From NCBI GenBank assembly GCA_951406725.2, contig OX597843.1, forward strand, positions 8,990,001 to 9,054,000: a DNA stretch of 64,000 nucleotides. The letters run 5' to 3'. A program made the translations under genes and the position numbers. Source of the DNA: Octopus vulgaris. Taxonomy: Eukaryota. A model generated the notes under the pieces. It saw only the letters and a list, made by a program, of their open reading frames with translations, did no database searches and was not told where the DNA came from. The stretch's first letter is position 1. Every line of letters starts with the position of its first letter. Below are positions 22,138 to 63,703 of this stretch, piece by piece.

Positions 22138-22237
22138 NNNNNNNNNNNNNNNNNNNNNNNNNNNNNNNNNNNNNNNNNNNNNNNNNNNNNNNNNNNNNNN
22201 NNNNNNNNNNNNNNNNNNNNNNNNNNNNNNNNNNNNN
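22138..22237. other. Assembly gap, exactly 100 N
   Basis: A round-number N run, typical of a scaffolding join of unknown size. Confidence 0.98.
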
Positions 22238-25200
22238 CTGGCCTGGCCTGGCCTGGCCTGGCCTGGCCTGGCCTGGCCTGGCCTGGCCTGGCCTGGCCTG
22301 GCCTGGCCTGGCCTGGCCTGGCCTGGCCTGGCCTGGCCTGGCCTGGCCTGGCCTGGCCTGGCCTGGCCTGGCCTGGCCTGGCCTGGCCTGGCCTGGCCTG
22401 GCCTGGCCTGGCCTGGCCTGGCCTGGCCTGGCCTGGCCTGGCCTGGCCTGGCCTGGCCTGGCCTGGCCTGGCCTGGCCTGGCCTGGCCTGGCCCTGGCCT
22501 GGCCTGGCCTGGCCTGGCCCTGGCCTGGCCTGGCCTGGCCTGGCCTGGCCTGGCCTGGCCTGGCCTGGCCTGGCCTGGCCTGGCCTGGCCTGGCCCTGGC
22601 CTGGCCTGGCCTGGCCTGGCCTGGCCTGGCCTGGCCTGGCCTGGCCTGGCCTGGCCTGGCCTGGCCTGGCCTGGCCTGGCCTGGCCTGGCCTGGCCTGGC
22701 CTGGCCTGGCCTGGCCTGGCCTGGCCTGGCCTGGCCTGGCCTGGCCTGGCCTGGCCTGGCCTGGCCTGGCCTGGCCTGGCCTGGCCTGGCCTGGCCTGGC
22801 CTGGCCTGGCCTGGCCTGGCCTGGCCTGGCCTGGCCTGGCCTGGCCTGGCCTGGCCTGGCCTGGCCTGGCCTGGCCTGGCCTGGCCTGGCCTGGCCTGGC
22901 CTGGCCTGGCCTGGCCTGGCCTGGCCTGGCCTGGCCTGGCCTGGCCTGGCCTGGCCTGGCCTGGCCTGGCCTGGCCTGGCCTGGCCTGGCCTGGCCTGGC
23001 CTGGCCTGGCCTGGCCTGGCCTGGCCTGGCCTGGCCTGGCCTGGCCTGGCCTGGCCTGGCCTGGCCTGGCCTGGCCTGGCCTGGCCTGGCCTGGCCTGGC
23101 CTGGCCTGGCCTGGCCTGGCCTGGCCTGGCCTGGCCTGGCCTGGCCTGGCCTGGCCTGGCCTGGCCTGGCCTGGCCTGGCTGCCTGGCCTGGCCTGGCCT
23201 GGCCTGGCCTGGCCTGGCCTGGCCTGGCCTGGCCTGGCCTGGCCTGGCCTGGCCTGGCCTGGCCTGGCCTGGCCTGGCCTGGCCTGGCCTGGCCTGGCCT
23301 GGCCTGGCCTGGCCTGGCCTGGCCTGGCCTGGCCTGGCCTGGCCTGGCCTGGCCTGGCCTGGCCTGGCCTGGCCTGGCCTGGCCTGGCCTGGCCTGGCCT
23401 GGCCTGGCCTGGCCTGGCCTGGCCTGGCCTGGCCTGGCCTGGCCTGGCCTGGCCTGGCCTGGCCTGGCCTGGCCTGGCCTGGCCTGGCCTGGCCTGGCCT
23501 GGCCTGGCCTGGCCTGGCCTGGCCTGGCCTGGCCTGGCCTGGCCTGGCCCTGGCCTGGCCTGGCCTGGCCTGGCCTGGCCTGGCCTGGCCTGGCCTGGCC
23601 TGGCCTGGCCTGGCCTGGCCTGGCCTGGCCTGGCCTGGCCTGGCCTGGCCTGGCCTGGCCTGGCCTGGCCTGGCCTGGCCTGGCCTGGCCTGGCCTGGCC
23701 TGGCCTGGCCTGGCCTGGCCTGGCCTGGCCTGGCCTGGCCTGGCCTGGCCTGGCCTGGCCTGGCCTGGCCTGGCCTGGCCTGGCCTGGCCTGGCCTGGCC
23801 TGGCCTGGCCTGGCCTGGCCTGGCCTGGCCTGGCCTGGCCTGGCCTGGCCTGGCCTGGCCTGGCCTGGCCTGGCCTGGCCTGGCCTGGCCTGGCCTGGCC
23901 TGGCCTGGCCTGGCCTGGCCTGGCCTGGCCTGGCCTGGCCTGGCCTGGCCTGGCCTGGCCTGGCCTGGCCTGGCCTGGCCTGGCCTGGCCTGGCCTGGCC
24001 TGGCCTGGCCTGGCCTGGCCTGGCCTGGCCTGGCCTGGCCTGGCCTGGCCTGGCCTGGCCTGGCCTGGCCTGGCCTGGCCTGGCCCTGGCCTGGCCTGGC
24101 CTGGCCTGGCCTGGCCTGGCCTGGCCTGGCCTGGCCTGGCCTGGCCTGGCCTGGCCTGGCCTGGCCTGGCCTGGCCTGGCCTGGCCTGGCCTGGCCTGGC
24201 CTGGCCTGGCCTGGCCTGGCCTGGCCTGGCCTGGCCTGGCCTGGCCTGGCCTGGCCTGGCCTGGCCTGGCCTGGCCTGGCCTGGCCTGGCCTGGCCTGGC
24301 CTGGCCTGGCCTGGCCTGGCCTGGCCTGGCCTGGCCTGGCCTGGCCTGGCCTGGCCTGGCCTGGCCTGGCCTGGCCTGGCCTGGCCTGGCTGGCCTGGCC
24401 TGGCCTGGCCTGGCCTGGCCTGGCCTGGCCTGGCCTGGCCTGGCCTGGCCTGGCCTGGCCTGGCCTGGCCTGGCCTGGCCTGGCCTGGCCTGGCCTGGCC
24501 TGGCCTGGCCTGGCCTGGCCTGGCCTGGCCTGGCCTGGCCTGGCCTGGCCTGGCCTGGCCTGGCCTGGCCTGGCCTGGCCCTGGCCTGGCCTGGCCTGGC
24601 CTGGCCTGGCCTGGCCTGGCCTGGCCTGGCCTGGCCTGGCCTGGCCTGGCCTGGCCTGGCCTGGCCTGGCCTGGCCTGGCCTGGCCTGGCCTGGCCTGGC
24701 CTGGCCTGGCCTGGCCTGGCCTGGCCTGGCCTGGCCTGGCCTGGCCTGGCCTGGCCTGGCCTGGCCTGGCCTGGCCTGGCCTGGCCTGGCCTGGCCTGGC
24801 CTGGCCTGGCCTGGCCTGGCCTGGCCTGGCCTGGCCTGGCCTGGCCTGGCCTGGCCTGGCCTGGCCTGGCCTGGCCTGGCCTGGCCTGGCCTGGCCTGGC
24901 CTGGCCTGGCCTGGCCTGGCTGGCCTGGCCTGGCCTGGCCTGGCCTGGCCTGGCCTGGCCTGGCCTGGCCTGGCCTGGCCTGGCCTGGCCTGGCCTGGCC
25001 TGGCCTGGCCTGGCCTGGCCTGGCCTGGCCTGGCCTGGCCTGGCCTGGCCTGGCCTGGCCTGGCCTGGCCTGGCCTGGCCTGGCCTGGCCTGGCCTGGCC
25101 TGGCCTGGCCTGGCCTGGCCTGGCCTGGCCTGGCCTGGCCTGGCCTGGCCTGGCCTGGCCTGGCCTGGCCTGGCCTGGCCTGGCCTGGCCTGGCCTGGCC

Positions 25201-28200
25201 TGGCCTGGCCTGGCCTGGCCTGGCCTGGCCTGGCCTGGCCTGGCCTGGCCTGGCCTGGCCTGGCCTGGCCTGGCCTGGCCTGGCCTGGCCTGGCCTGGCC
25301 TGGCCTGGCCTGGCCTGGCCTGGCCTGGCCTGGCCTGGCCTGGCCTGGCCTGGCCTGGCCTGGCCTGGCCTGGCCTGGCCTGGCCTGGCCTGGCCTGGCC
25401 TGGCCTGGCCTGGCCTGGCCTGGCCTGGCCTGGCCTGGCCTGGCCTGGCCTGGCCTGGCCTGGCCTGGCCTGGCCTGGCCTGGCCTGGCCTGGCCTGGCC
25501 TGGCCTGGCCTGGCCTGGCCTGGCCTGGCCTGGCCTGGCCTGGCCCTGGCCTGGCCTGGCCTGGCCTGGCCTGGCCTGGCCTGGCCTGGCCTGGCCTGGC
25601 CTGGCCTGGCCTGGCCTGGCCTGGCCTGGCCTGGCCTGGCCTGGCCTGGCCTGGCCTGGCCTGGCCTGGCCTGGCCTGGCCTGGCCTGGCCTGGCCTGGC
25701 CTGGCCTGGCCTGGCCTGGCCTGGCCTGGCCTGGCCTGGCCTGGCCTGGCCTGGCCTGGCCTGGCCTGGCCTGGCCTGGCCTGGCCTGGCCTGGCCTGGC
25801 CTGGCCTGGCCTGGCCTGGCCTGGCCTGGCCTGGCCTGGCCTGGCCTGGCCTGGCCTGGCCTGGCCTGGCCTGGCCTGGCCTGGCCTGGCCTGGCCTGGC
25901 CTGGCCTGGCCTGGCCTGGCCTGGCCTGGCCTGGCCTGGCCTGGCCTGGCCTGGCCTGGCCTGGCCTGGCCTGGCCTGGCCTGGCCTGGCCTGGCCTGGC
26001 CTGGCCTGGCCTGGCCTGGCCTGGCCTGGCCTGGCCTGGCCTGGCCTGGCCTGGCCTGGCCTGGCCTGGCCTGGCCTGGCCTGGCCTGGCCTGGCCTGGC
26101 CTGGCCTGGCCTGGCCTGGCCTGGCCTGGCCTGGCCTGGCCTGGCCTGGCCTGGCCTGGCCTGGCCTGGCCTGGCCTGGCCTGGCCTGGCCTGGCCTGGC
26201 CTGGCCTGGCCTGGCCTGGCCTGGCCTGGCCTGGCCTGGCCTGGCCTGGCCTGGCCTGGCCTGGCCTGGCCTGGCCTGGCCTGGCCTGGCCTGGCCTGGC
26301 CTGGCCTGGCCTGGCCTGGCCTGGCCTGGCCTGGCCTGGCCTGGCCTGGCCTGGCCTGGCCTGGCCTGGCCTGGCCTGGCCTGGCCTGGCCTGGCCTGGC
26401 CTGGCCTGGCCTGGCCTGGCCTGGCCTGGCCTGGCCTGGCCTGGCCTGGCCTGGCCTGGCCTGGCCTGGCCTGGCCTGGCCTGGCCTGGCCTGGCCTGGC
26501 CTGGCCTGGCCTGGCCTGGCCTGGCCTGGCCTGGCCTGGCCTGGCCTGGCCTGGCCTGGCCTGGCCTGGCCTGGCCTGGCCTGGCCTGGCCTGGCCTGGC
26601 CTGGCCTGGCCTGGCCTGGCCTGGCCTGGCCTGGCCTGGCCTGGCCTGGCCTGGCCTGGCCTGGCCTGGCCTGGCCTGGCCTGGCCTGGCCTGGCCTGGC
26701 CTGGCCTGGCCTGGCCTGGCCCTGGCCTGGCCTGGCCTGGCCTGGCCTGGCCTGGCCTGGCCCTGGCCTGGCCTGGCCTGGCCTGGCCTGGCCTGGCCTG
26801 GCCTGGCCTGGCCTGGCCTGGCCTGGCCTGGCCTGGCCTGGCCTGGCCTGGCCTGGCCTGGCCTGGCCTGGCCTGGCCTGGCCTGGCCTGGCCTGGCCTG
26901 GCCTGGCCTGGCCTGGCCTGGCCTGGCCTGGCCTGGCCTGGCCTGGCCTGGCCTGGCCTGGCCTGGCCTGGCCTGGCCTGGCCTGGCCTGGCCTGGCCTG
27001 GCCTGGCCTGGCCTGGCCTGGCCTGGCCTGGCCTGGCCTGGCCTGGCCTGGCCTGGCCTGGCCTGGCCTGGCCTGGCCTGGCCTGGCCTGGCCTGGCCTG
27101 GCCTGGCCTGGCCTGGCCTGGCCTGGCCTGGCCTGGCCTGGCCTGGCCTGGCCTGGCCTGGCCTGGCCTGGCCTGGCCTGGCCTGGCCTGGCCTGGCCTG
27201 GCCTGGCCTGGCCTGGCCTGGCCCTGGCCTGGCCTGGCCTGGCCTGGCCTGGCCTGGCCTGGCCTGGCCTGGCCTGGCCTGGCCTGGCCTGGCCTGGCCT
27301 GGCCTGGCCTGGCCTGGCCTGGCCTGGCCTGGCCTGGCCTGGCCTGGCCTGGCCTGGCCTGGCCTGGCCTGGCCTGGCCTGGCCTGGCCTGGCCTGGCCT
27401 GGCCTGGCCTGGCCTGGCCTGGCCTGGCCTGGCCTGGCCTGGCCTGGCCTGGCCTGGCCTGGCCTGGCCTGGCCTGGCCTGGCCTGGCCTGGCCTGGCCT
27501 GGCCTGGCCTGGCCTGGCCTGGCCTGGCCTGGCCTGGCCTGGCCTGGCCTGGCCTGGCCTGGCCTGGCCTGGCCTGGCCTGGCCTGGCCTGGCCTGGCCT
27601 GGCCTGGCCTGGCCTGGCCTGGCCTGGCCTGGCCTGGCCTGGCCTGGCCTGGCCTGGCCTGGCCTGGCCTGGCCTGGCCTGGCCTGGCCTGGCCTGGCCT
27701 GGCCTGGCCTGGCCTGGCCTGGCCTGGCCTGGCCTGGCCTGGCCTGGCCTGGCCTGGCCTGGCCTGGCCTGGCCTGGCCTGGCCTGGCCTGGCCTGGCCT
27801 GGCCTGGCCTGGCCTGGCCTGGCCTGGCCTGGCCTGGCCTGGCCTGGCCTGGCCTGGCCTGGCCTGGCCTGGCCTGGCCTGGCCTGGCCTGGCCTGGCCT
27901 GGCCTGGCCTGGCCTGGCCTGGCCTGGCCTGGCCTGGCCTGGCCTGGCCTGGCCTGGCCTGGCCTGGCCTGGCCTGGCTGGCCTGGCCTGGCCTGGCCTG
28001 GCTGGCCTGGCCTGGCCTGGCCTGGCCTGGCCTGGCCTGGCCTGGCCTGGCCTGGCCTGGCCTGGCCTGGCCTGGCCTGGCCTGGCCTGGCCTGGCCTGG
28101 CCTGGCCTGGCCTGGCCTGGCCTGGCCTGGCCTGGCCTGGCCTGGCCTGGCCTGGCCTGGCCTGGCCTGGCCTGGCCTGGCCTGGCCTGGCCTGGCCTGG

Positions 28201-31200
28201 CCTGGCCTGGCCTGGCCTGGCCTGGCCTGGCCTGGCCTGGCCTGGCCTGGCCTGGCCTGGCCTGGCCTGGCCTGGCCTGGCCTGGCCTGGCCTGGCCTGG
28301 CCTGGCCTGGCCTGGCCTGGCCTGGCCTGGCCTGGCCTGGCCTGGCCTGGCCTGGCCTGGCCTGGCCTGGCCTGGCCTGGCCTGGCCTGGCCTGGCCTGG
28401 CCTGGCCTGGCCTGGCCTGGCCTGGCCTGGCCTGGCCTGGCCTGGCCTGGCCCTGGCCTGGCCTGGCCTGGCCTGGCCTGGCCTGGCCTGGCCTGGCCTG
28501 GCCTGGCCTGGCCTGGCCTGGCCTGGCCTGGCCTGGCCTGGCCTGGCCTGGCCTGGCCTGGCCTGGCCTGGCCTGGCCTGGCCTGGCCTGGCCTGGCCTG
28601 GCCTGGCCTGGCCTGGCCTGGCCTGGCCTGGCCTGGCCTGGCCTGGCCTGGCCTGGCCTGGCCTGGCCTGGCCTGGCCTGGCCTGGCCTGGCCTGGCCTG
28701 GCCTGGCCTGGCCTGGCCTGGCCTGGCCTGGCCTGGCCTGGCCTGGCCTGGCCTGGCCTGGCCTGGCCTGGCCTGGCCTGGCCTGGCCTGGCCTGGCCTG
28801 GCCTGGCCTGGCCTGGCCTGGCCTGGCCTGGCCTGGCCTGGCCTGGCCTGGCCTGGCCTGGCCCTGGCCTGGCCTGGCCTGGCCCTGGCCTGGCCTGGCC
28901 TGGCCTGGCCTGGCCTGGCCTGGCCTGGCCTGGCCTGGCCTGGCCTGGCCTGGCCTGGCCTGGCCTGGCCTGGCCTGGCCTGGCCTGGCCTGGCCTGGCC
29001 TGGCCTGGCCTGGCCTGGCCTGGCCTGGCCTGGCCTGGCCTGGCCTGGCCTGGCCTGGCCTGGCCTGGCCTGGCCTGGCCTGGCCTGGCCTGGCCTGGCC
29101 TGGCCTGGCCTGGCCTGGCCTGGCCTGGCCTGGCCTGGCCTGGCCTGGCCTGGCCTGGCCTGGCCTGGCTGGCCTGGCCTGGCCTGGCCTGGCCTGGCCT
29201 GGCCTGGCCTGGCCTGGCCTGGCCTGGCCTGGCCTGGCCTGGCCTGGCCTGGCCTGGCCTGGCCTGGCCTGGCCTGGCCTGGCCTGGCCTGGCCTGGCCT
29301 GGCCTGGCCTGGCCTGGCCTGGCCTGGCCTGGCCTGGCCTGGCCTGGCCTGGCCTGGCCTGGCCTGGCCTGGCCTGGCCTGGCCTGGCCTGGCCTGGCCT
29401 GGCCTGGCCCTGGCCTGGCCTGGCCTGGCCTGGCCTGGCCTGGCCTGGCCTGGCCTGGCCTGGCCTGGCCTGGCCTGGCCTGGCCTGGCCTGGCCTGGCC
29501 TGGCCTGGCCTGGCCTGGCCTGGCCTGGCCTGGCCTGGCCTGGCCTGGCCTGGCCTGGCCTGGCCTGGCCTGGCCTGGCCTGGCCTGGCCTGGCCTGGCC
29601 TGGCCTGGCCTGGCCTGGCCTGGCCTGGCCTGGCCTGGCCTGGCCTGGCCTGGCCTGGCCTGGCCTGGCCTGGCCTGGCCTGGCCTGGCCTGGCCTGGCC
29701 TGGCCTGGCCTGGCCTGGCCTGGCCTGGCCTGGCCTGGCCTGGCCTGGCCTGGCCTGGCCTGGCCTGGCCTGGCCTGGCCTGGCCTGGCCTGGCCTGGCC
29801 TGGCCTGGCCTGGCCTGGCCTGGCCTGGCCTGGCCTGGCCTGGCCTGGCCTGGCCTGGCCTGGCCTGGCCTGGCCTGGCCTGGCCTGGCCTGGCCTGGCC
29901 TGGCCTGGCCTGGCCTGGCCTGGCCTGGCCTGGCCTGGCCTGGCCTGGCCTGGCCTGGCCTGGCCTGGCCTGGCCTGGCCTGGCCTGGCCTGGCCTGGCC
30001 TGGCCTGGCCTGGCCTGGCCTGGCCTGGCCTGGCCTGGCCTGGCCTGGCCTGGCCTGGCCTGGCCTGGCCTGGCCTGCTGGCCTGGCCTGGCCTGGCCTG
30101 GCCTGGCCTGGCCTGGCCTGGCCTGGCCTGGCCTGGCCTGGCCTGGCCTGGCCTGGCCCTGGCCTGGCCTGGCCTGGCCTGGCCTGGCCTGGCCTGGCCT
30201 GGCCTGGCCTGGCCTGGCCTGGCCTGGCCTGGCCTGGCCTGGCCTGGCCTGGCCTGGCCTGGCCTGGCCTGGCCTGGCCTGGCCTGGCCTGGCCTGGCCT
30301 GGCCTGGCCTGGCCTGGCCTGGCCTGGCCTGGCCTGGCCTGGCCTGGCCTGGCCTGGCCTGGCCTGGCCTGGCCTGGCCTGGCCTGGCCTGGCCTGGCCT
30401 GGCCTGGCCTGGCCTGGCCTGGCCTGGCCTGGCCTGGCCTGGCCTGGCCTGGCCTGGCCTGGCCTGGCCTGGCCTGGCCTGGCCTGGCCTGGCCTGGCCT
30501 GGCCTGGCCTGGCCTGGCCTGGCCTGGCCTGGCCTGGCCTGGCCTGGCCTGGCCTGGCCTGGCCTGGCCTGGCCTGGCCTGGCCTGGCCTGGCCTGGCCT
30601 GGCCTGGCCTGGCCTGGCCTGGCCTGGCCTGGCCTGGCCTGGCCTGGCCTGGCCTGGCCTGGCCTGGCCTGGCCTGGCCTGGCCTGGCCTGGCCTGGCCT
30701 GGCCTGGCCTGGCCTGGCCTGGCCTGGCCTGGCCTGGCCTGGCCTGGCCTGGCCTGGCCTGGCCTGGCCTGGCCTGGCCTGGCCTGGCCTGGCCTGGCCT
30801 GGCCTGGCCTGGCCTGGCCTGGCCTGGCCTGGCCTGGCCTGGCCTGGCCTGGCCTGGCCTGGCCTGGCCTGGCCTGGCCTGGCCTGGCCTGGCCTGGCCT
30901 GGCCTGGCCTGGCCTGGCCTGGCCTGGCCTGGCCTGGCCTGGCCTGGCCTGGCCTGGCCTGGCCTGGCCTGGCCTGGCCTGGCCTGGCCTGGCCTGGCCT
31001 GGCCTGGCCTGGCCTGGCCTGGCCTGGCCTGGCCTGGCCTGGCCTGGCCTGGCCTGGCCTGGCCTGGCCTGGCCTGGCCTGGCCTGGCCTGGCCCTGGCC
31101 TGGCCTGGCCTGGCCTGGCCTGGCCTGGCCTGGCCTGGCCTGGCCTGGCCTGGCCTGGCCTGGCCTGGCCTGGCCTGGCCTGGCCTGGCCTGGCCTGGCC

Positions 31201-34200
31201 TGGCCTGGCCTGGCCTGGCCTGGCCTGGCCTGGCCTGGCCTGGCCTGGCCTGGCCTGGCCTGGCCTGGCCTGGCCTGGCCTGGCCTGGCCTGGCCTGGCC
31301 TGGCCTGGCCTGGCCTGGCCTGGCCTGGCCTGGCCTGGCCTGGCCTGGCCTGGCCTGGCCTGGCCTGGCCTGGCCTGGCCTGGCCTGGCCTGGCCTGGCC
31401 TGGCCTGGCCTGGCCTGGCCTGGCCTGGCCTGGCCTGGCCTGGCCTGGCCTGGCCTGGCCTGGCCTGGCCTGGCCTGGCCTGGCCTGGCCTGGCCCTGGC
31501 CTGGCCTGGCCTGGCCTGGCCTGGCCTGGCCTGGCCTGGCCTGGCCTGGCCTGGCCTGGCCTGGCCTGGCCTGGCCTGGCCTGGCCTGGCCTGGCCTGGC
31601 CTGGCCTGGCCTGGCCTGGCCTGGCCTGGCCTGGCCTGGCCTGGCCTGGCCTGGCCTGGCCTGGCCTGGCCTGGCCTGGCCTGGCCTGGCCTGGCCTGGC
31701 CTGGCCTGGCCTGGCCTGGCCTGGCCTGGCCTGGCCTGGCCTGGCCTGGCCTGGCCTGGCCTGGCCTGGCCTGGCCTGGCCTGGCCTGGCCTGGCCTGGC
31801 CTGGCCTGGCCTGGCCTGGCCTGGCCCTGGCCTGGCCTGGCCTGGCCTGGCCTGGCCTGGCCTGGCCTGGCCTGGCCTGGCCTGGCCTGGCCTGGCCTGG
31901 CCTGGCCTGGCCTGGCCTGGCCTGGCCTGGCCTGGCCTGGCCTGGCCTGGCCTGGCCTGGCCTGGCCTGGCCTGGCCTGGCCTGGCCTGGCCTGGCCTGG
32001 CCTGGCCTGGCCTGGCCTGGCCTGGCCTGGCCTGGCCTGGCCTGGCCTGGCCTGGCCTGGCCTGGCCTGGCCTGGCCTGGCCTGGCCTGGCCTGGCCTGG
32101 CCTGGCCTGGCCTGGCCTGGCCTGGCCTGGCCTGGCCTGGCCTGGCCTGGCCTGGCCTGGCCTGGCCTGGCCTGGCCTGGCCTGGCCTGGCCTGGCCTGG
32201 CCTGGCCTGGCCTGGCCTGGCCTGGCCTGGCCTGGCCTGGCCTGGCCTGGCCTGGCCTGGCCTGGCCTGGCCTGGCCTGGCCTGGCCTGGCCTGGCCTGG
32301 CCTGGCCTGGCCTGGCCTGGCCTGGCCTGGCCTGGCCTGGCCTGGCCTGGCCTGGCCTGGCCTGGCCTGGCCTGGCCTGGCCTGGCCTGGCCTGGCCTGG
32401 CCTGGCCTGGCCTGGCCTGGCCTGGCCTGGCCTGGCCTGGCCTGGCCTGGCCTGGCCTGGCCTGGCCTGGCCTGGCCTGGCCTGGCCTGGCCTGGCCTGG
32501 CCTGGCCTGGCCTGGCCTGGCCTGGCCTGGCCTGGCCTGGCCTGGCCTGGCCTGGCCTGGCCTGGCCTGGCCTGGCCTGGCCTGGCCTGGCCTGGCCTGG
32601 CCTGGCCTGGCGGCCTGGCCTGGCCTGGCCTGGCCTGGCCTGGCCTGGCCTGGCCTGGCCTGGCCTGGCCTGGCCTGGCCTGGCCTGGCCTGGCCTGGCC
32701 TGGCCTGGCCTGGCCTGGCCTGGCCTGGCCTGGCCTGGCCTGGCCTGGCCTGGCCTGGCCTGGCCTGGCCTGGCCTGGCCTGGCCTGGCCTGGCCTGGCC
32801 TGGCCTGGCCTGGCCTGGCCTGGCCTGGCCTGGCCTGGCCTGGCCTGGCCTGGCCTGGCCTGGCCTGGCCTGGCCTGGCCTGGCCTGGCCTGGCCTGGCC
32901 TGGCCTGGCCTGGCCTGGCCTGGCCTGGCCTGGCCTGGCCTGGCCTGGCCTGGCCTGGCCTGGCCTGGCCTGGCCTGGCCTGGCCTGGCCTGGCCTGGCC
33001 TGGCCTGGCCTGGCCTGGCCTGGCCTGGCCTGGCCTGGCCTGGCCTGGCCTGGCCTGGCCTGGCCTGGCCTGGCCTGGCCTGGCCTGGCCTGGCCTGGCC
33101 TGGCCTGGCCTGGCCTGGCCTGGCCTGGCCTGGCCTGGCCTGGCCTGGCCTGGCCTGGCCTGGCCTGGCCTGGCCTGGCCTGGCCTGGCCTGGCCTGGCC
33201 TGGCCTGGCCTGGCCTGGCCTGGCCTGGCCTGGCCTGGCCTGGCCTGGCCTGGCCTGGCCTGGCCTGGCCTGGCCTGGCCTGGCCTGGCCTGGCCTGGCC
33301 TGGCCGCCTGGCCTGCGGCCTGGCCTGGCCTGGCCTGGCCCTGGCCTGGCCTGGCCTGGCCTGGCCTGGCCTGGCCTGGCCTGGCCTGGCCTGGCCTGGC
33401 CTGGCCTGGCCTGGCCTGGCCTGGCCTGGCCTGGCCTGGCCTGGCCTGGCCTGGCCTGGCCTGGCCTGGCCTGGCCTGGCCTGGCCTGGCCTGGCCTGGC
33501 CTGGCCTGGCCTGGCCTGGCCTGGCCTGGCCTGGCCTGGCCTGGCCTGGCCTGGCCTGGCCTGGCCTGGCCTGGCCTGGCCTGGCCTGGCCTGGCCTGGC
33601 CTGGCCTGGCCTGGCCTGGCCTGGCCTGGCCTGGCCTGGCCTGGCCTGGCCTGGCCTGGCCTGGCTGGCCTGGCCTGGCCTGGCCTGGCCCTGGCCCTGG
33701 CCTGGCCTGGCCTGGCCTGGCCCCTGGCCCCTGGCCTGGCCCTGGCCTGGCCCTGGCCTGGCCTGGCCTGGCCTGGCCTGGCCTGGCCCTGGCCTGGCCT
33801 GCCTGGCCTGGCCTGGCCCTGGCCTGGCCCTGGCCTGGCCTGCCTGGCCTGCCCTGGCTGGCCTGGCCTGGCCTGGCCTGGCCTGGCCTGGCCTGGCCTG
33901 GCCTGGCCTGGCCTGGCCTGGCCTGGCCTGGCCTGGCCTGGCCTGGCCTGGCCTGGCCTGGCCTGGCCTGGCCTGGCCTGGCCCTGGCCTGGCCTGGCCT
34001 GGCCTGGCCCTGGCCTGGCCTGGCCCCTGGCCTGGCCTGGCCTGGCCTGGCCTGGCCTGGCCTGGCCTGGCCCCTGGCCTGGCCTGGCCCTGGCCTGGCC
34101 CTGGCCCCTGGCCCTGGCCCTGGCCTGGCCTGGCCGGCCTGGCCCTGGCCCTGGCCTGGCCTGGCCTGGCCCTGGCCCTGGCCCTGGCGCCTGGCCTGGC

Positions 34201-34260
34201 CCTGGCCCGCCTGGCCTGCCTGGCCTGGCCCTGCCGCCCTGGCCGGCCCTACCCTGGCCC
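22238..34260 (+). repeat. ~12 kb (CCTGG)n array in telomeric position, grading into CCCTGG variants
   Basis: Near-perfect pentamer; interruptions are mostly single-C indels; CCCTGG/CCCCTGG density rises after ~33300. Confidence 0.97.
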
Positions 34261-34483
34261 CCCTACCCTAACCCTAACCCTACCAACCCAACCCCAACCC
34301 AACCCACCCCCACCAAACCCTAACCCTCCTGCCCCCCCGCCCTACCCCCTAACCCTAACCCTACCCTAACCCTAAACCTAACCTCCCCCTAACCCTAACC
34401 CTAACCCTACCCCTAACCCTACCCAACACCCCTAACCCAAACCCCAACCCCAACCCCAACCCTAACCCAACCCTTAACCCTAA
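34261..34483 (+). repeat. Degenerate telomeric (CCCTAA)n, the C-strand of TTAGGG
   Basis: ccctaaccctaaccc runs with CCCTA/CCCCAA variants; TTAGGG is the ancestral metazoan repeat and is reported in molluscs. Confidence 0.9.
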
Positions 34484-34494
34484 TTTAATAATAT

Positions 34495-35172
34495 GCGAGA
34501 GGAGTAACTCTAGAAAGGGAGATAACTAAAAAAAAATCTGCCAGGGTTACCGCCCTTACATCTAGTTAATTTACTATTATGTATTATTAATTTGAAATGT
34601 TCAAGGGAAGTAACTCTAGAAAGGGAGATAACTAAAAAAAAACTCTCCCAAAAACCTCCCTTACATCTAATTCAATTACTATTATTTGTTATTAAATTGA
34701 TGTATTCAAGGGGAGTAACTCTAGGAAGGGAGAGAATTACTACCCTTGAATACTTCAATTTAATAACACAATACTAATTTAATTAGATGTAAGGGAGATA
34801 ACTCTGGAAGATTTTTTTAGTTATCTCCCTTCCTAGAGTTACTCCCCTTGAACATTTCAATTTAATAATACATAATATTAGTTTAATTAGATGTAAGGGA
34901 GATCTTTTTGTTCTCTACAAAGGAAGATAACTAAAAATCTTCCAGAGTTACCTCCCTTATATCTAATTAAATTACTATTATGTATTATTAAATTGAAATG
35001 TTCAAGGGAGTAACTCTAGAAAGGAGATAACTAAAAGATCTTCCAGAGTTACCTCCCTTACATCTAATTGAATTACTAATATGTATTATTAAATTGAAAT
35101 ATTCAAGGGGAGTAAATCTCCTAGAGATATATAAAAAAATCTTCAAAAGTTACCTCCCTTACATTTAATTAA
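34495..35172. repeat. Telomere-associated ~105-120 bp repeat in forward/inverted/forward arrangement
   Basis: gtaactctagaaagggagataactaaaa...cccttacatctaatt at ~34501, 34608 and 35007; reverse complement at ~34737-34910; related pieces near 37965, 44510 and 46180-46340. Confidence 0.85.
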
Positions 35173-35504
35173 ATAACGACTATTATCAAAATGTGTCATG
35201 GAAGCTAATTAACTCTACAATATACTGTTCAGACGTAACACTTTTACTCCTTTCCTTGTTTAGTCATTTCAATCTGCCCATGCTGGAGCACAGCCTTTTC
35301 TAGAGCAAATCGACACTAGGACTTTTATCTACGTCAGTCTAGTATTTATTCTGTTGGTCTTCTTTTCCCGAACGGATAGGTTAATGGAGTGTAAAATTCA
35401 CCGACATCGCTTGTGAAACGGTTTTGGGGACATCGAAACACACACATATATACATATATATAAACATCTATATGTATATACATGTTTCTCTCTATATATA
35501 TATA

Positions 35505-36358
35505 TTGCAGAAACAATACTGCTGTCTTTAGTGTTCCCACTGATATTGACGTAAGAGAAGCGAACGAAGTTGACTCCCAACACAAAATTGCAGACATAAC
35601 CTTCACTCCCTCTGACATCGTAGCAGCAATAAATGAGGTCAAATACTACTCTGCTGTAGGCCCTGATAGATTCCCCGTTAGTCTCCTGAAGGAATGTAAA
35701 CACCAACTTGCAGTCCCACTGACCAACCTCTGGAGAAATTCGTTAGATGCAGGTATATACCAAAACAGTTTCTATCCCAGTCAGTCAACCCGGGTTTCAA
35801 ACAGGGAAACGGATCCCTCGCACTCAACTATCGCCCAATGTCACTCACCTCCCACATCATCAAAGTGTTTGAAAGAGTGTTAAGATCAAGGATGGCTGAC
35901 TTCCTGGAGACCCAGAAACTACTAAATGCAAATCAGCATGGCTTTCGCTGTGGCAGGGACTGTCTAACACGGCTCTTACACCACATTGAAGATGTACTCA
36001 AAGCCTTGGGAACAGGTTCGAACACTGATGTCATATATCTTGACTTCAGTAAAGCGTTCGACAGGGTAGACCATAATATCCTACTCTCAAAATTGGCAAA
36101 TGTTGGAATCCATGGAAAAGTTCTACACTGGATCAAGTATTTCCTGGCGAATACAACACAACATGTTGTAGTTGATGGAGTCCACTCAAGCCAAGCAAAA
36201 GTCACCAGCGGTGTCCCTCAGGGGTCTGTCTTGGGTCCGCTACTCTTCATAATCTACATAAACGACCTTTCCAGTGTCGTACATTACTGCAAAGTGAACA
36301 TATTTGCTGATGACACCAAGCTCCAGCAAATCGTCAATGAAGAAGCAGACCGATCCAG
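35505..36358 (+). pseudogene. CR1/L2-group LINE reverse transcriptase fragment
   Basis: SAVGPDRFP, SLTSHIIKVFER, QHGFR, YLDFSKAFDRVDH, SGVPQGSVLGPLLFIIYINDL, FADD; frameshifted and truncated. Confidence 0.92.
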
Positions 36359-36473
36359 GTATGTAGATACGGGGTGCTTAACACTCGCAAATCTGGAGTC
36401 ACTAAAGGTGCAATTGAACTTCTTTTCATTTAGAACTTAGGGATCTGCAAATGTCGGTATCTTAGAGATGCTT

Positions 36474-37990: not shown

Positions 37991-38000
37991 AGGTAATTAC

Positions 38001-41000
38001 GTGGCCCTGAATTACATGCACCTGAATGTCCTGCCCCTTAATTACATGGCCCTGAATTACATGGCCCTGAATTACATGACCCTGTATTACCTGCCCTTGA
38101 ATTACCTGTACCTGAGTTACATGTCCCTGAATTACATGCACCTGAATTACCTGCCCGCCAATTACCTTCCCCTGAATTACATATCCCTGAATTACATGTC
38201 CCTGAATGACATTCCTCTAAATTACCAACCGCTGCATAACCTGCCCCTGGATTACATTACCCCTGAATTACCCGCCCCTGAATTACATGCCCGAATTACA
38301 TGCCCCTGAATTTCATGCCCCTGAATTAACTGCCCCTCAATTACCTGCTCCTTAATTACATGGCCCTGAATTACATGGCCCTGAATTTCCTGCCCCTTAA
38401 TTACATGCCCCTGTATTACCTGCCCTTGAATTACCTGCCCCTGAGTTACATGTCCCTGAATTACATGCACCTGAATTACCTGCCCCTCAATCACCTTTCC
38501 CTGAATTACATGTCCCTAAATTACATGCATCTGAATTACCTGCCCCTGAATTACAAACACCTGAATTAGATGCCCCTGAATTACCTGCCCCTCAATTACA
38601 TGCACATGAATGACCTGACCCTGAATGATATGCCCCTCAATTATCTATCCCTAAATTACCTGCCCCGGAATTACCTGCCCGTGAATGTCATGCCCCTGGA
38701 TTAACTGCCCCTGAATTACATGCCACTGAATAACATACACCAGAATAAGATACACCTGAATTACCTGACCCAAAATTACATACCCCTGAATTACCTGCCC
38801 CTAAATTACATGCATCTGAATTACCTGCCCCTGAATTACATGACCCTGAATTATCTGCCCCTCAATTACATGCCTCTTAATTACATGCACCTGTATGACC
38901 TGACCCCGAATTATCTATCCCTAAATTTCCTGCCAATGAATTACCTGCCCGTGAATGACATGCCCCTGAATTACCTGCACCTAGATTACCTGCCCCAGAA
39001 TTACATGCACCTGGATTACCTAACCCAGAATTACATGCCCCTGAATTACCTGCCCATGAATGACATTCCTCTAAATTACCTGTCCCTGAATTACCTTCCC
39101 CTGAATTACATTCCTCTGAATTACCCACCCATGAATTACATGCCCCTGAATTACATGCCCCTGAATTACCTACCCCTGAATTAACTACCCCTCAATTACA
39201 TGCCCCTGGATTACCTAACCCAGAATTACATGCACCTGGATTACCTAACCCAGAATTACATGCCCCTTAATTACATGCCCCTGAATTACCTGCACCTGAA
39301 TGACATGCCCCTGAATTACGTGCCCCTGAATTACCTCCCCCTGAATTACCATCCCCTGAATTTCATGCCCATGAATTACCTGCCCCTGAATTACCTGCCC
39401 CTGAATGACCTGCCCCTTAATTACATACCCCTGGATTACCTGTCCCTGAATAACCTATACCTGAATAACCTGACACTCAATAATCTGCCCCTGAAGTTCC
39501 TGCCCCTAAATTACCTTCCCCTGAATTACATGCCCCTGAATTACCTGCCCATGAATTACATGCACCTGAATTACATGCGCCTGAATTACATACACCTGAA
39601 TTACCTGCCCCTGAATTACCTGCATCTGAATTACCTGCTCCTGAATTACATACACCTGAATTACCTGCCCCTAAATTATGGGCCCCTGAATTACCTGTCC
39701 CTGAATGACATGCCCCTCAATCACAAGCCCATGAATGACATTCCTATAAATTACCTGTCCCTGATTTACCCCTGAATTACCTTCCCCTGAAAAACACTCC
39801 TCTGAATTACCTGCCCGTGAATTACCTGCCCCTGGATTACCTTCCCCTGAATTACACTCTAAATTACCTGCCCCTGAATTACCTGCCAATGAATGACATT
39901 CCTCTAAATCACCTGCACCTGAACTACCTGCCCCTGGATTACCTTCGCCTCAATTACCCGCCCATGAATTACATGCCCCTGAACTACCTGCCCCTTAATT
40001 ACATGTCCTTGAATTATTTGCCAATATTCCTCTAATTTACCTGCACCTAAATTACTTGCCCCTAAATTACATGCCCCTGAATAACCTGCCCATGAATTAC
40101 ATGCCCCTGAATTACATACACCTGAATTACCTGACCCTGAATTACATGCCCCTGAATTATCTACCCCCGAGTCCCTGAATAACCTGCACCTGAATTACCT
40201 GCCCCTGAATTACATACACCTGAATTACATGCTCGTGAAATACGTGCCCGTGAATTTCCTGCCCCAAAATTACGTGCCCCTGAATGACGTGCCCCTGAAT
40301 GACATGCCCCTCAATTACCTGCCCATGAATTACATACACCTGAATTACATGCCCGTGAATTACCTGCCCGTGAATTACCTGCCCCTATATTACATGCCAC
40401 TCAATTACCGACCCATGAATTACCTGCCCCTGAATAACATACACATGAATTAACTTCCCCTCAATTACCTGCCCCTGAATTATATACCCCTGAAGTACCT
40501 GCCCCTAAATTACATGCATCTGAATTACCTGCCCCTGAATTACAAACACCTGAAATACATGGCCCTGAATTACCTGCCTCTTATTTACATGCACCTGAAT
40601 GACCTGCCTCTGAATTATCTATCCCTAAATTACCGGCCCCTGAATTACCTACCCGTGAATGACATGCCTCTGAATTACCTGCACCTAGATTACCTGCCCC
40701 TGAATTACATGCCCCTGAATCACCTTTCATCTGAATTACATGCCCCTCGATTACCTGCCCCTAAATTACCTGCCCATGAATGACATTCCTCTAAATTACC
40801 TGTCCCTGAATTACCCCTGAATTACCTTCCCCTGAAATATATTGCTCTGAATTACCCACCCACGAATTACATGCCCCTGAATTACCTACCCCTGAATTAC
40901 ATACACCTGAATTACATGCCCCTCAATTACCTGCACCTGAATTACATGCCCCTGAAATACATTGCTCTGAATTACCCACCAACGAATTACATGCCCTTGA

Positions 41001-44000
41001 ATTACATGCCCCTGAATTACCTTCCCCTGAATTACATACATCTGAATTACATGCCCCTCAATTCCATGCCCCTGAATGACATGCCCCTTAATTACTTAAC
41101 CCTGAAGTACCTGCCCCTGAATTACCTGCCACTAAATTACATGCATCTGAATTACCTGCCCCTGAATTACAAACACCTGAATTACATGACCCTGAATTAC
41201 CTGCCCCTCAATTACATGTCTCTTAATTACATGCACCTGAATGACCTGCCCCTGAATGACATGTCTCTGAATTGTCTATCCCTAAATTATCTGCCCCTGA
41301 ATTACCTGCCCGTGAATGACATACCCCTGAAATACCTGCACCTAGATTACCTGCCCCTGAATTACATTTCATCTGAATTACATGTCCCTGAATGACATTC
41401 CTATAAATTACCTGTCCCTAAATTACCCCTGAATTACATTCCTCTGAATTACCTGCCAATGAATGACATTCCTCTAAATCACCTGCTCCTGAATTACCTG
41501 CCCCTGGATTACCTTCCCCTCAATTACCCGCCCATGAATTACATGCCCGAATTACATGCCCCTGAATTACCTGCCCCTGAATGAAGTGCACCTGAATTAA
41601 ATGCCCCTGAATTACATACACCTGAATTATCAGCTCCTGAATTACATGCCCCTGAATTATCTGCCCCTGAGTCCCTGAATTACATGCCCGTGAATTACCT
41701 GCCCCTAAATTACATGCCCCTCAATTACCTACCCATGAATTACATACACCTGAATTACATGCCCTGTGAATTACCTGCCCCTGAATGACATGCCCCTCAA
41801 TTACCTGCCCATGAATTACATGCCCCTGAACTACCTGCCCCTTAATTACATGTCCCTAAATTATCTGCCAATGAATGACATACCTCTAATTACCTGCCCT
41901 GACATACCCTCTAAATTACCTGCCCCTGAATTACATACCCCTGAATTACCTGCCCCTCAATTACATGCCTCTTAATTACATGCACATGAATGATCTGACC
42001 CTGAATGATATGCCCCTGAATTATCTATCCCTAAATTACCTGCCCGGAATTACCTGCCAGTGAATGACATACCCCTGGATTAACTGCCCCTGAATAACCT
42101 GCCCCTGAATAACATACACCTGAATTACCTTCCCCAGAATTACATGCCCCTGATTTACCTGCCCCTGAATTACATGGCCTTCAATAACCTGCCCCTCAAT
42201 TACATGCACCTAAATGACCTGCCCCTGAATTATCTATCCCTAAATTACCTGCCCGTGATTGACATACCCCTGAATTACCTGCACCTAGATTACCTGCCCC
42301 TGAATTACATGCTCCTAAATTACATGCCCCCTGAATTACATGCCCCTGAATTACCTGCCCCTGGATTACCTAGCCCTGATTTACCTGCCCCTGAATTACA
42401 TGGCCTTCAATAACCTGCCCCTCAATTACATGCACCTAAATGACCTGCCCCTGAATTATCTATCCCTAAATTACCTGCCCGTGATTGACATACCCCTGAA
42501 TTACCTGCCCCTGAATTACCTGCCCCTGAATTACATGCCCCTGAATTACATGCCCCTGAATTACATGCCCCTGAATTACCTGCCCCTGGATTACCTAGCC
42601 CTGAATTACCTGCCCCTGAATTACCTTCGCTGAATGACATGCCCCTGAATGACATGCCCCTGAATCACCTGCCCATGAATTACATGCACCTGAATTACAT
42701 GCCCCTGAATTACATGCAACTGATTTACATGCCCCTGAATTACACTCCCCTGAATTATTTACCCCTGAGTCCCTGAATAACCTGCACCTGAATTACCTGC
42801 CCCTCAATTACCTGCCCATGAATTAAATGCCCCTGAAGTACCTGCCCCTAAATTACATGACCCTGAATGACCTGCCCCTGAATGACATGCCTCTGAATTA
42901 TCTATCCCTAAATTACCAGCCCGTGAATGACATGCCCCTGAATTACCTTTCATCTGAATTACATGCCCCTGGATTACCTGCCCCTAAATTACCTGCAGAT
43001 GAATGACATTCCTCTAAGGTACCTGTCCCTGAATTACCTTCCCCTGAATTACATGCCCCTGAATTACATTCCTCTGAATTACCCACCCACGAATTACATG
43101 CCCCTGAATTACATACACCTGAATTACAGACACCTGAATTACAGACACCTGAATTACATGCCCCTCAATTACATGCCGCTGAATTACCTAACCCTGAATT
43201 ACCTGCCCCTGAATTACCTTCCCTGAATGACATGCCCCTGAATTACATACCCATGAATTACATGCACCTGAATTAAATGCCCCTGAATTAAATGCCCCTG
43301 AATTACATGCCCCTGAATTACCTGCCCCTAAATTACATGCCCGTGAATTACCTGCCCCTGAATGACATGCCCCTCAATTAACTGCCCGTGAACTACCTGG
43401 CCCTAAATTACATGCCCCTCAATTACCTGCCCATGAATTAAATGCCCCTAAAATATCTTCCCTGAAGTACCTGCCCCTAAATTACATGCATTTGAATTAC
43501 GTGCCCCTGAATTACAAGCACCTGAATTACCTGCCTCTTAATTACATGCACCTGAATGACCTGCCCCTGAATTTCATGCATCTGATTTATCTATCCCTAA
43601 ATTACCAGCCCCTGAATTACCTGCCCGTGAATTACATGCCCCTGAAATACATGCACCTCGATTACCTGCCCCTGAATTACATGCCCCTGGATTACCTGCC
43701 CATGAATGATATTCCTCTAAATTACCTGTCCCTGAATTACGCCTGAATTACCTGCGCCTGGATTACCTTCCCCCGAATTACATTCCTCTGAATTACCCAC
43801 CCACGAATTACATGCCCCTGAATTACATACACCTGGATTACGAGCCCCTCAATTACCTGCACCTCAATTACATGCCCCTGAATTAAACATGCCCCTGAAT
43901 TACAAGACCCTGAATTACCTGTCCATGAATGACATTCCTATAAATTACCTCCCCCTGGATTACCTTCCCCTAAATTACATTGCTCTGTATTACCTGCCAA

Positions 44001-44058
44001 TGAATGACATTACTCTAAATCACCTGCACCTGGATTACCTTCCCCTCAATTACCCGCA
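38001..44058. repeat. ~6 kb 15-bp satellite, consensus CCCTGAATTAC(A/C)TGC, ~400 diverged units
   Basis: Clear 15-bp periodicity (LNYMP/LNYLP in translation) with substitutions and occasional indels. Confidence 0.97.
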
Positions 44059-57381: not shown

Positions 57382-59892
57382 CATGTAGTAATCCATGCAT
57401 AAATGTTGAAACGCATGGTACTAAAATACATATATGCAGTTATATATAACCGTGCGAGCGTACATTGTTTGATACGTATGTACATATGTGTAGATGTATA
57501 TGTGTGTACACGTGTCTGTGTATGTGTGTGCCGTATGTTGTGTATATTTGTGTATAAATATGTACATGCATGCACATATGAGCATGTGTAAATATACATA
57601 TGTATTATATATGTATGCATACTCTTTACTCTTTTACTTGTTTCAATCATTTGACTGCGGCCATGCTGGAGCACCGCCTTTAGTCGAGTAAATCGACCCC
57701 GGGACTTATTCTTTGTAAGCCCAGTACTTATTCTATTGGTCTCTTTTGCCGAACCGCTAAGTGACGGGGACGTAAACACATCAGCATCGGTTGTCAAGCA
57801 ATGCTAGGGGGACAAACACAGACACACACACATACATACATATATACATATATACGACAGGATTCTTTCAGTTTCCGTCTACCAAATCCACTCACAAGGC
57901 ATTGGTCGGCCCGGGGCTATAGCAGAATACACTTGCCCAAGATGCCACGCAGTGGGACTGAACCCGGAACCATGTGGTTGGTTAGCAAGCTACTTACCAC
58001 ACAGCCACTCCTGCGCATGTAAAATATATTAAAAAAAAAACAATAAAATAAAACAAGTTTGAATTTTAACCATTGTCCTTGGAAAAATTGTCATATATAT
58101 GTATAGAAAGAGCCATATACATCGATGACATAGTTTTCCGATCGGTCACGGTTGGAACGTCTCTCCGATCACCCATAATCCACCTACTGGTTCAGTAAAG
58201 ACTGTAGAAGTAGGGGTTTTAAACATGATCGACAACGCGGATTTCAGCAAAAACCACGCACCATAAGGAAACAAACTAAAACCGTGTTGTTTACAATGTT
58301 TATATGTATTTAAATGTGTAATATACTGACCTTTTCATTGTCCAAGGTGGAGGTAAGGGACTGGCCTAAGGCTTCATTCAGTGTGGGGGTGATCGTAAGT
58401 CCACGACAGGGTGACCATTTGGACACACGAGCGGAAGAGATAGCAACATAATAATCCTTGTAGTGAGTTTGATAATGGCTTTTAAACATTGCACTAAGAG
58501 CTGCTGCTGATGGTGGTGGTAGTAAAAGGTAAAAAGTGCGTCGTGGTGAGAGGAAGTCACTCTGTACTGATGGTGGTGACGGTGTTGTGGTGTGGTGAGA
58601 GATAATGTCGTGATAGAACACTCTGTACCGATGAGGGTGGTGATGGTGACTGTTGTGGTTGTGGTGAAAGTTACTCAGAACTGATGTGGGGGTGGCGGGA
58701 GATACCGGTGTACCGATGATGGTGATAGTGGTGGGGAGAAGTTACTCTACTGATGGGGTGGTGATAGCGACTGTATAATGATGGTGGGAGTGGTGGTGAG
58801 CGGTTACAGTGTACGAATGATAGTGGTGGTGGTAGAGAGAGAGAGAGAGAGAGAGAGAGATAGGTAGACTGTAGTAGTAGTAGGAGGAACACAAACGCAC
58901 ACACTCGAACACATAGAAATAAATACATTCACTCACACACAAACGTATGCGCACACAGTACCTGGATCTGTAAAACAGATCAAAAATAAAATACAAGAGA
59001 TCGTAAGATCATTTCCAGTTTTCCACACGCACATATCAACACTTGTCAATGAATGTAGTGCACCAAATTACCAAACTCCCAACAGGTCAGGGGTCACTTC
59101 AACGTATCCTGATTGATATTGCTATCTGACCTATTTCCAACACAGAAATGAAAACACTCACTCACACACACGCACAAACACAGAAATGAAAACACACAGT
59201 TACACACTCACAAACGCACAAACTCGAACACATAGAAATAATTACATTCACTCACACACACGCACGGAAATGAAAATAATCACACATACTCACACACAGA
59301 AATGAAAACACAGTTACAAACTCACACACCTAGCAATGAAAACACACATGTACACACTCACTCATTCACACACACACACACACACTCAGGCACAAACATT
59401 GAACCGGAAACACTCTGTCACACAGGTGCGCGCAAACACAGACACAGAAATTAAAGCACACACACACACATATTGGCTTACAAACACACTCATTTAATTT
59501 CTTCAGAATGTCAAAGTTTTAAAGTCAACATATTTAAAGCATAAATACCTACAAGTGTGCATCTTTGCATGTATCTATGTGTGTGTGTGTTCGGACGTAT
59601 GTGTGTTTGTGCGTGTTTGAGCACAGTCCACACATACGCTGCCGTAACGTAACGGTTAGAATGAGTACTAGCATTCCACAGAATAAGTCCTAGAGTACGT
59701 TTTGTTTGACTAAAGACGGTGCGCGGGCATAAATATATATATATATGAATACATAATAATAATAATGGCCGTCCACTCGTGACCGAGGAAAACCATTGCC
59801 GACCTTCATGAACATTGTGCGCTCTAGGACTAACTTATATTTTGCATTTGCGGCTCCGTTGGTGGCTAATGAGCCCTGCTCTTGACAAGCAT
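57348..59892. repeat. Tandem segmental duplication, copy 1
   Basis: Near-identical to 61651-63844 apart from the SINE and microsatellite lengths. Confidence 0.95.
57621..58016 (-). mobile_element. Full-length young SINE family B, present only in duplication copy 1
   Basis: Complete head and tail; the empty site atgcat|gtaaaa is at ~61909-61920 in copy 2. Confidence 0.9.
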
Positions 59893-61650
59893 TCACCATT
59901 GTTCGTGTGGATCGCACAGACCGAAATAAGGGAGGGACAGCCATCTTTATCCATGACTCCTTTTCACTTGATGCCAAAGACATATTTTCCAATGGCTATT
60001 GTGAATCTGTATCACTATTCAGCAAGGCCAAGGACATAATCATTGTTGGTCTTTACAGGCCTCCCCAAGCACCTCTAAAGTGCTTTGAAGAGTGCCTTAG
60101 TAAAGTCAAGTCCTTCATTCGGAAGTACAACTCCGGAAACATACTAGTGATGGGTGATTTTAACCTTCCTTATGTGTACTGGCCCACAAATACTCTGAAG
60201 TTAGGCAAATGCTCTACATCAGATAGAGCAGCAGCAGAACTGCTCTTTAATCGCATGGATGAATACTTGCTGACTCAGCTAGTGCTCGAACCAACGAGAC
60301 AGAATAAAACGATCTTGGATCTGGTATTGACCAATCACTCTAGCTTCGTTCACAGTATTTCAGTTGAAAAAACTATCCTCTCAGACCACGACATGATACT
60401 CTGCAATTTCAATTCCCGACATATAAAAACCAAACCAGCCAATACCACTCCATGGCACTCATTTGACAACATAAACTTCCACAAAGCGGACTGGGGAGCA
60501 ACCAGAAAGGATCTGTCTTGCATCGACTTGTCTTTCACTCTCAATTCCATCCATACTGAGACCGCATGGCAGCACTTTGAAAACATTGTCACCTATACAT
60601 GCGCTAAACACGCTCCCATGAAATCTACTAACACAAACAGAAACCGGCTCCCTAAAAAGAAAAAAACACTCATCAGGCGCATCAAAAGACTCAACAAACA
60701 AAATCAACCAATTAAAATATTCCCACATACAACATCCAAATTCAACAACAATGAAAAGGCTAGAGCTGGAAAAACTTCATCTACAGAACGACATGAAAAC
60801 CTCCATTGAAAATCAAAGAGCTGTGGAGGAACAGTGGGTAATCAAAAACATCAAACAGAACCCAAAAGTGTTCTATTCTTATGCAAATAAGCATAGAACC
60901 ACTGTCTCACCCATTGGGCCATTGATTGATGAAAACGGCATTCCCCAACACGATGCTAAAGAAATGGCAGAAATACTGCAGAAACAATATTGCTCTGTCT
61001 GATATTGACGCAAGAGAAGCGAACGAAGTTGACCCTCAACATAAAATCTCAGACATAACCTTCACTGCCACTGACATCACAGCAGCAATAAATGAGATCA
61101 AATACTACTCTGCTGTAGGCCCTGATAGATTCCCCGCTAGTCTCCTGAAGGAATGTAGACACCAACTTGCAGTCCCTCTGACCAACCTCTGGAGAAATTC
61201 GTTAGACGCAGGTTATATACCAAAACAGTTTCTATCCCAGCCGGTCATCCCGGTTTTCAAACAGGGAAACAGATCCCTCGCACTCAACTATCGCCCAATC
61301 TCACTCACCTCCCACATCATCAAAGTGTTTGAAAGAGTGTTAAGATCAAGGATGGCTCACTTCCTGGAGACCCAGAAACTCCTAAATGCAAATCAGCATG
61401 GCTTTCGCTGTGGCAGGGACTGTCTAACACAGCTCTTACACCACATTGAAGATGTACTCAAAGCCTTGGGAACAGGTTCGAACTCTGATGTCATATATCT
61501 TGACTTCAGTAAAGCGTTCGACAGGGTAGACCATAATATCCTACTCTCAAAATTGGCAAATGTTGGAATCCGTGGAAAAGTTCTACACTAGATCAAGTAT
61601 TTCCTGGCGAATATAACACAACATGTGGTAGTTGATGGAGTCCACTCAAG
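59893..61650 (+). pseudogene. CR1/L2-group LINE ORF2 fragment (AP endonuclease plus RT N-terminus)
   Basis: DR...KGGTAIFI, LYRPP, MGDFNLP, EPTR, ILDLVLTN, SDHD; then NYRPISLTS, QHGFR, DFSKAFD; frameshifts; same family as 35505-36358. Confidence 0.93.

Positions 61651-63624: not shown

Positions 63625-63703
<79 letters not shown>

Follow-up and report, generated by a model that had tools for sequence, protein, structure and literature searches.

The closest described system to the repeat considered here is a set of base-calling errors in nanopore reads of telomeres. As described in the main text of Tan et al. 2022 (PMC9414165), TTAGGG is written as TTAAAA, and CCCTAA is written as either CTTCTT or CCCTGG. 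These errors are strand-specific, absent from HiFi data and occur alongside true repeats, with the C strand being worse affected. They are put down to the similar current profiles of CCCTAA and CCCTGG, and 6-mer to 5-mer miscalls are also reported for variant repeats. A human telomere preprint that cites this work (PMC10769321) includes CCTGG and TGGCCTGGCCTGGCC among Guppy telomere patterns, and in the sections drawn on here Guppy lengths agreed with current-peak counts. Fold-back long reads form a second system. In the text consulted (PMC12870357) they are described as near-perfect palindromes, half per strand, that can disturb assemblies. For cephalopods, the only determined telomere motif is TTAGGG (Amphioctopus areolatus), as cited second-hand in the part of PMC13218726 used here.

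The window, meaning the whole stretch of 64,000 nucleotides analysed, corresponds to C30:8,990,001-9,054,000. Scaffold C30 is 21.16 Mb long, in an assembly of 2.8 Gb and 227 scaffolds. The presence in this assembly of a CCTGG array of the kind originally described is confirmed. This array is very likely a known sequencing artefact written over an ordinary TTAGGG-type telomere repeat, and the genome itself probably lacks it. The array and its surroundings consist of the following features:

22138..22237, no strand: 100-N scaffolding gap; the first base of the array follows directly
22238..33680, forward strand: core (CCTGG)n without A, from unit and indel counts; likely a C-strand miscall of (CCCTAA)n
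33681..34257, forward strand: transition zone of CCTGG with CCCTGG/CCCCTGG, from unit counts; the 6-mer is the one named by Tan et al.
34258..34483, forward strand: noisy (CCCTAA)n with CCCCAA/CCCAA variants; the sole part called as canonical repeat
34484..35200, no strand: telomere-adjacent sequence in units of ~101-105 bases; copies 85-96% identical border telomere-repeat tracts on other scaffolds
35464..36440, forward strand: broken LINE reverse-transcriptase fragment (RVT_1, E 3e-27)
37995..44054, forward strand: diverged 15-mer satellite, 407 copies with 73% matches (TRF); abuts TTAGGG at C17:~3.1 kb

The array comprises 2,440 units between 22238 and ~34484, of which 2,328 are exact CCTGG. 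TRF reports a 5-mer in 2,398 copies (22238-34259, 98% matches), in good agreement with the ~2400 units of the original prediction. The rarer units include 41 CCCTGG, 9 CTGG, 5 CCCCTGG and 8 CCCTAA, with the remainder rarer still. The base A is absent from 22238-34250, and perfect runs of CCTGG extend for up to 235 units. CCCTGG accounts for 0-3 of every 100 units until 33737 and rises to 19 of 98 units at 33738-34237. Next come noisy CCCTAA/CCCCAA runs that continue to 34483 (~230 bases at the end of the array), so the grading from CCTGG through CCCTGG to CCCTAA is as predicted. Aligned with perfect (CCTGG)n, the core shows 31 indels and no substitutions in 11,381 aligned bases. By comparison, the 15-mer satellite in the window carries 841 substitutions and 63 indels (5,967 bases) and a GAT array carries 54 substitutions and no indels (900 bases), which bears out the claim that the errors of the array are almost all indels, unlike those of natural satellites in the window. 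The expected lack of strand skew is also seen, with 4,393 C and 4,380 G in 22238-33200; this is not the G-rich strand of a telomerase-made repeat. As to the miscall to which the array had been attributed, Tan et al. name the 6-mer CCCTGG, but a term search of their main text does not find the 5-mer CCTGG, which is listed in PMC10769321.

Elsewhere in the assembly, (CCTGG)x10 has 3,983 forward and 8,189 reverse matches. The total of 12,172 compares with 53 for the reversed control pattern and is thus far beyond chance; (CCCTAA)x8 has 6,731 matches. Eleven telomere-repeat regions hold 12,062 of the 12,172 matches (99.1%), the other 110 being not located, and in all 11 the CCTGG is oriented as CCCTAA. 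Blocks of CCTGG and CCCTAA alternate within tracts. Loci were picked by means of the 717 bases beside the array (135 matches; 40 of 161 candidates scored) and two motif patterns, and 50 stretches were examined, in which CCTGG-type sequence adds up to about 84 kb and TTAAAA-type sequence to 34 kb. The published error motifs matched in these tracts are CCCTGG, CTTCTT, TTAAAA, CCTGG and TGGCCTGGCCTGGCC. As in a miscall, the CCTGG-type motif stands where telomere repeat would be, and true repeats are found alongside it. Copies of the adjacent sequence are followed by plain CCCTAA at the C22 start, C42 and C48, by TTAGGG broken by TTAAAA blocks at C5, C27, C52 and C53, and by CCTGG at C7, C10, C13, the C22 end, C28, C31 and C42. 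An identical junction is present in seven copies; it continues as CCTGG/CCCTGG in four and as CCCTAA in three. Scaffold C22 opens with pure CCCTAA. The length of the proximal zone of canonical or noisy repeat differs between loci, with none at C6 and C28 and about 350 b at C31 and C10; an effect of context explains this better than a fixed layer of biological origin would.

This distribution bears on the possibility of a real GC-rich 5-mer satellite, expanded without telomerase inside subtelomeric or interstitial blocks of telomere repeat. Interstitial CCCTAA blocks do exist, at C48 and C42, where they share a common distal flank (95% over 260 b), and CCTGG tracts at C17, C42 and C7 pass into non-telomeric DNA at either end with no intervening gap. 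However, a satellite would have to have accumulated no substitutions in 11.4 kb, unlike its natural counterparts in the window, and to have kept 99.1% of its matches, in a single polarity, inside tracts of telomere repeat. One and the same LINE end (98% over 1,086 b) is found beside a tract called as CCAGG at C17 and beside one called as TTAGGG/TTAAAA at C27, and the mirror locus at C6, described below, is equally hard to reconcile with a satellite. Such an origin is considered very improbable.

If each tract represents reads of one strand, then no tract should contain both TTAAAA and CCTGG/CTT. Among 33 tracts of at least 200 b (29 regions), CCTGG/CTT is present in 13, TTAAAA in 9, neither in 11 and both in none. 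C4 and C20, picked by adjacent sequence, carry no tract and the C1 tract is shorter than 200 b; all three lie outside the 33. Fisher's test gives p = 0.005 over all 33 tracts, and 0.025 when three C33 pieces are merged; this significance is inflated by the selection of loci by motif. For the 20 tracts picked by adjacent sequence alone p = 0.094, and for the 14 tracts of at least 1 kb picked in this way p = 0.015 (both hand tallies). Exclusivity is accordingly regarded as supporting, not decisive. CCTGG, CCCTGG and CTT go with the C strand and TTAAAA goes with the G strand, a strand specificity seen on assembled tracts, not on reads.

A switch of the telomerase template, or a second template, could instead have produced, on some chromosome ends, real (CCAGG)n beyond the ancestral TTAGGG. 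The polarity and the layering of proximal TTAGGG and distal CCAGG, seen here and at the C10, C13 and C22 ends, would suit this origin, and perfect runs of up to 235 units would suit fresh synthesis. At these three scaffold ends a short zone of proximal TTAGGG gives way to CCTGG that continues to the final base, but this layering is equally expected from a C-strand read. A template switch also needs the new repeat to be outermost, and it is contradicted by the return of CCCTAA distal to CCTGG in 5 of 13 tracts, over 4.5 kb at C31 and over shorter distances at C17, C42, C28 and C7. In addition, the equivalent ends C5 and C27 carry 8-10 kb of TTAGGG/TTAAAA without CCAGG (long tracts without CCAGG are found at C5, C8, C27, C33, C52 and C53), the arms of C6 differ in their repeat, and the TTAAAA and CTT blocks are left unexplained. 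The CCAGG unit, read directly from the sequence, has zero G/C skew and no three-G run. Searches of the assembly for telomerase with RF00024 (RNA) and PF12009 returned nothing, and no positive control scored above the cut-off; 21 mollusc telomerase RNAs have been reported (PMC8480181), in a paper whose main text does not contain the word 'octopus'. In the titles and abstract openings searched, no report was found of CCAGG as a real telomere motif. Taken together, the switch put forward as an alternative in the original prediction is hardly credible, given the returning canonical repeats and three fold-backs with CCTGG on one arm only. A broader version, in which real multi-kilobase blocks of the strand-symmetric repeat (CCAGG)n are interleaved with TTAGGG through a second template or recombination, is likewise judged very unlikely.

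The first of the fold-back loci is C6:34,933,700-34,968,000, a 12,166-base inverted duplicate (99.3%) that extends from an N gap around a head-to-head telomere-repeat centre. Arm 1 (5,055 b) contains 739 CCAGG and 178 CCAGGG among 968 units. Arm 2 (4,927 b) contains 594 TTAGGG among 861 units, and its junction is the same as that of arm 1. Had one end truly been fused or formed a palindrome, the two arms would share their repeat, which those of C6 do not. The inverted duplication is likely a fold-back read assembled as genome, with the G strand read on the way out and the C strand on the way back, and any gene located there would be falsely duplicated. At C5, 10.3 kb of TTAGGG interrupted by TTAAAA blocks come after a copy of the adjacent sequence (96%), and the tract then flips to CCTGG, then to about 380 b of CTT, and then to CCTGG again until a gap. 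At C7, TTAGGG flips to mixed CCCTAA/CCTGG; a mirrored flank of C7 was looked for and not recovered. At all three loci CCTGG appears on one arm only. The C6 arms roughly keep their base count (5,055 versus 4,927), a property measurable in this one case only, and the window tract therefore likely represents ~12 kb or more of repeat.

The preference of the original prediction for a miscalled telomere is supported by these strand controls within the assembly (the C6 mirror, the C5 and C7 flips and the exclusivity of tracts), and motif identity and polarity are likewise observed there. Under this reading, a (CCCTAA)n/(TTAGGG)n tract of ~12 kb or more would have been written as (CCTGG)n by a nanopore base-caller, the C-rich strand being the one read when CCTGG is called. 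The error motifs and the mirror locus suggest that the tracts of this assembly derive from nanopore reads. The window contig may have been extended by one long read of the C-rich strand, and if each tract comes from one or a few reads of one strand, polishing could not have corrected it. The base-caller would have been stuck in a CCTGG state through pure repeat, regaining first CCCTGG and then CCCTAA near non-repetitive sequence. Context given by this nearby sequence may be why the final ~230 bases are called correctly.

A related possibility is that the bases are indeed CCCTAA, but that an octopus-specific modification of or damage to the C strand, instead of a generic base-caller fault, drives the CCTGG call. 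Miscalled and correct blocks alternate within one tract at C31, and strand-specific nanopore errors from modifications are known (PMC11610603, consulted in part). However, human cell-line telomeres, in the partial texts available, give the same motifs, and these shift with the base-calling model, so no special modification is needed. A modification particular to the octopus seems extremely doubtful, and a generic miscall is preferred. The underlying telomere repeat is biologically ordinary.

The array had been predicted to occupy a distal telomere, starting from the contig edge. It does start right after a gap, but this edge is a 100-N gap in mid-scaffold (9.01 Mb; the tract lies at 9.0 of the 21.2 Mb of C30), making a terminal position a matter of deduction. 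No telomere tract is seen in the first and last 10 kb of C30. The sequences to the left and right of the gap have only short and dispersed matches in common, of up to about 440 b. It seems fairly probable that the window contig is a chromosome end that scaffolding put in an internal position; that the tract is a long interstitial block is less likely, and is suggested tentatively. A distal telomere is plausible but unproven, given the mid-scaffold location and the fact that, of comparable tracts in the assembly, some sit at scaffold ends and others run into non-telomeric DNA. Eight long (5-13 kb) tracts, including that of the window, occur in mid-scaffold, most of them beside or near 100-N gaps, and are candidates for misplaced or inverted chromosome ends:

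C5:55.06 Mb
C6:34.95 Mb
C7:59.57 Mb
C8:17.87 Mb
C27:22.58 Mb
C28:20.94 Mb
C30:9.01 Mb
C31:9.78 Mb

Several tracts are bordered distally by sequence that they share. The interstitial CCCTAA blocks of C48 and C42 (L004:6900-8570, L005:1-1320) are ~1.1-1.3 kb long. Their common flank (95% over 260 b) interleaves short runs of CCCTAA with a non-telomeric spacer that recurs, and is likely a real subtelomeric repeat unit. The 17-kb tract of C17 and the 8.5-kb tract of C27 are joined on their distal sides by the same LINE 3' end, which contains RVT_1 and a CTAA-like tail:

C17:~20,140 (L023:130-1230): shared LINE end
C27:~22,585,300 (L008:9820-10000 / L028:1-900): shared LINE end; the proximal flanks of the two differ

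These two junctions may stem from a single insertion that was assembled twice because repeats had collapsed, or from the duplication of an interstitial block. Because distal flanks are shared in both pairs (C48/C42 and C17/C27), adjacent sequence is no proof of terminal position. A LINE that targets telomeres was considered for C17 and C27 but discarded, since the family, dispersed in at least 2,537 copies, is not telomere-specific and the pattern of a tail followed by CCCTAA occurs at one locus only (C27). At the C42 end (L026:4620-5442), a 13-kb tract called as CCAGG is closed directly by non-telomeric sequence. By eye, we take this sequence to resemble a Tc1/mariner transposase; the boundary is either a real junction or a read chimera.

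Public reads were compared with 34484-35450, beside the array, using 4 (X1 and X21-X23) of 24 runs. The raw Illumina runs X21-X23, with ~3% of each sampled, gave 0 reads on this interval, which says nothing either way about the repeat. Run X1 gave 574 short contigs, which bear out the adjacent sequence only, and none among those listed displays the repeat side of the junction.

Other repeats in the window were also noted. The 15-mer satellite (37995-44054) is 3.5 kb from the tract, and is likely subtelomeric since the same satellite directly adjoins TTAGGG at the C17 start (L016:2800-3140). CCCCAA/TTGGGG blocks recur by the edges of tracts of both strand types (window 34442-34459; L016, L024, L026). 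Either real variant repeats or one more miscall may account for them, the latter because a similar current profile is predicted in the main text of Tan et al. At the far end of the window, a direct duplication of 1,756 bases (98.4%; ~58015-59765 and ~61910-63660) lies on either side of a broken LINE with an endonuclease at 59886-60809 and a reverse transcriptase at 60926-61591.

For practical use, CCTGG-type and TTAAAA-type sequence marks telomere-repeat tracts that are missed by a TTAGGG search, and, since many tracts are in mid-scaffold beside gaps, it flags likely misplaced chromosome ends. The tracts give rough lengths of 5-17 kb for this animal. Given an assembly like this one, motif-discovery tools would put forward CCAGG as a novel telomere repeat. 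The 12-kb inverted duplication at C6 is likely false.

Compared with the fold-back artefacts of PMC12870357, the C6 mirror and the flips of C5 and C7 are alike, but telomeres are not treated in the text consulted, and the window's own array has no fold-back. The proximal edge of the window tract carries the same TTAGGG/CCCTAA repeat as the (TTAGGG)n telomere cited for cephalopods in the part of PMC13218726 used here, and nothing different is apparent. TTAAAA, CTTCTT and CCCTGG, as given in the main text of Tan et al. (PMC9414165), are all found here in the expected orientation. The octopus case differs in that the dominant unit is a 5-mer, that the error is fixed in an assembly and not in reads, and that it concerns a group not tested there. 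TeloNP (PMC10769321), in the sections drawn on here, concerns human reads and uses its patterns as filters, and assemblies are not described. Its C-strand entry is 'CTTCTT|CCTGG|CCC...', and it filters telomere reads with TGGCCTGGCCTGGCC, so that the exact unit of the array is among its patterns.
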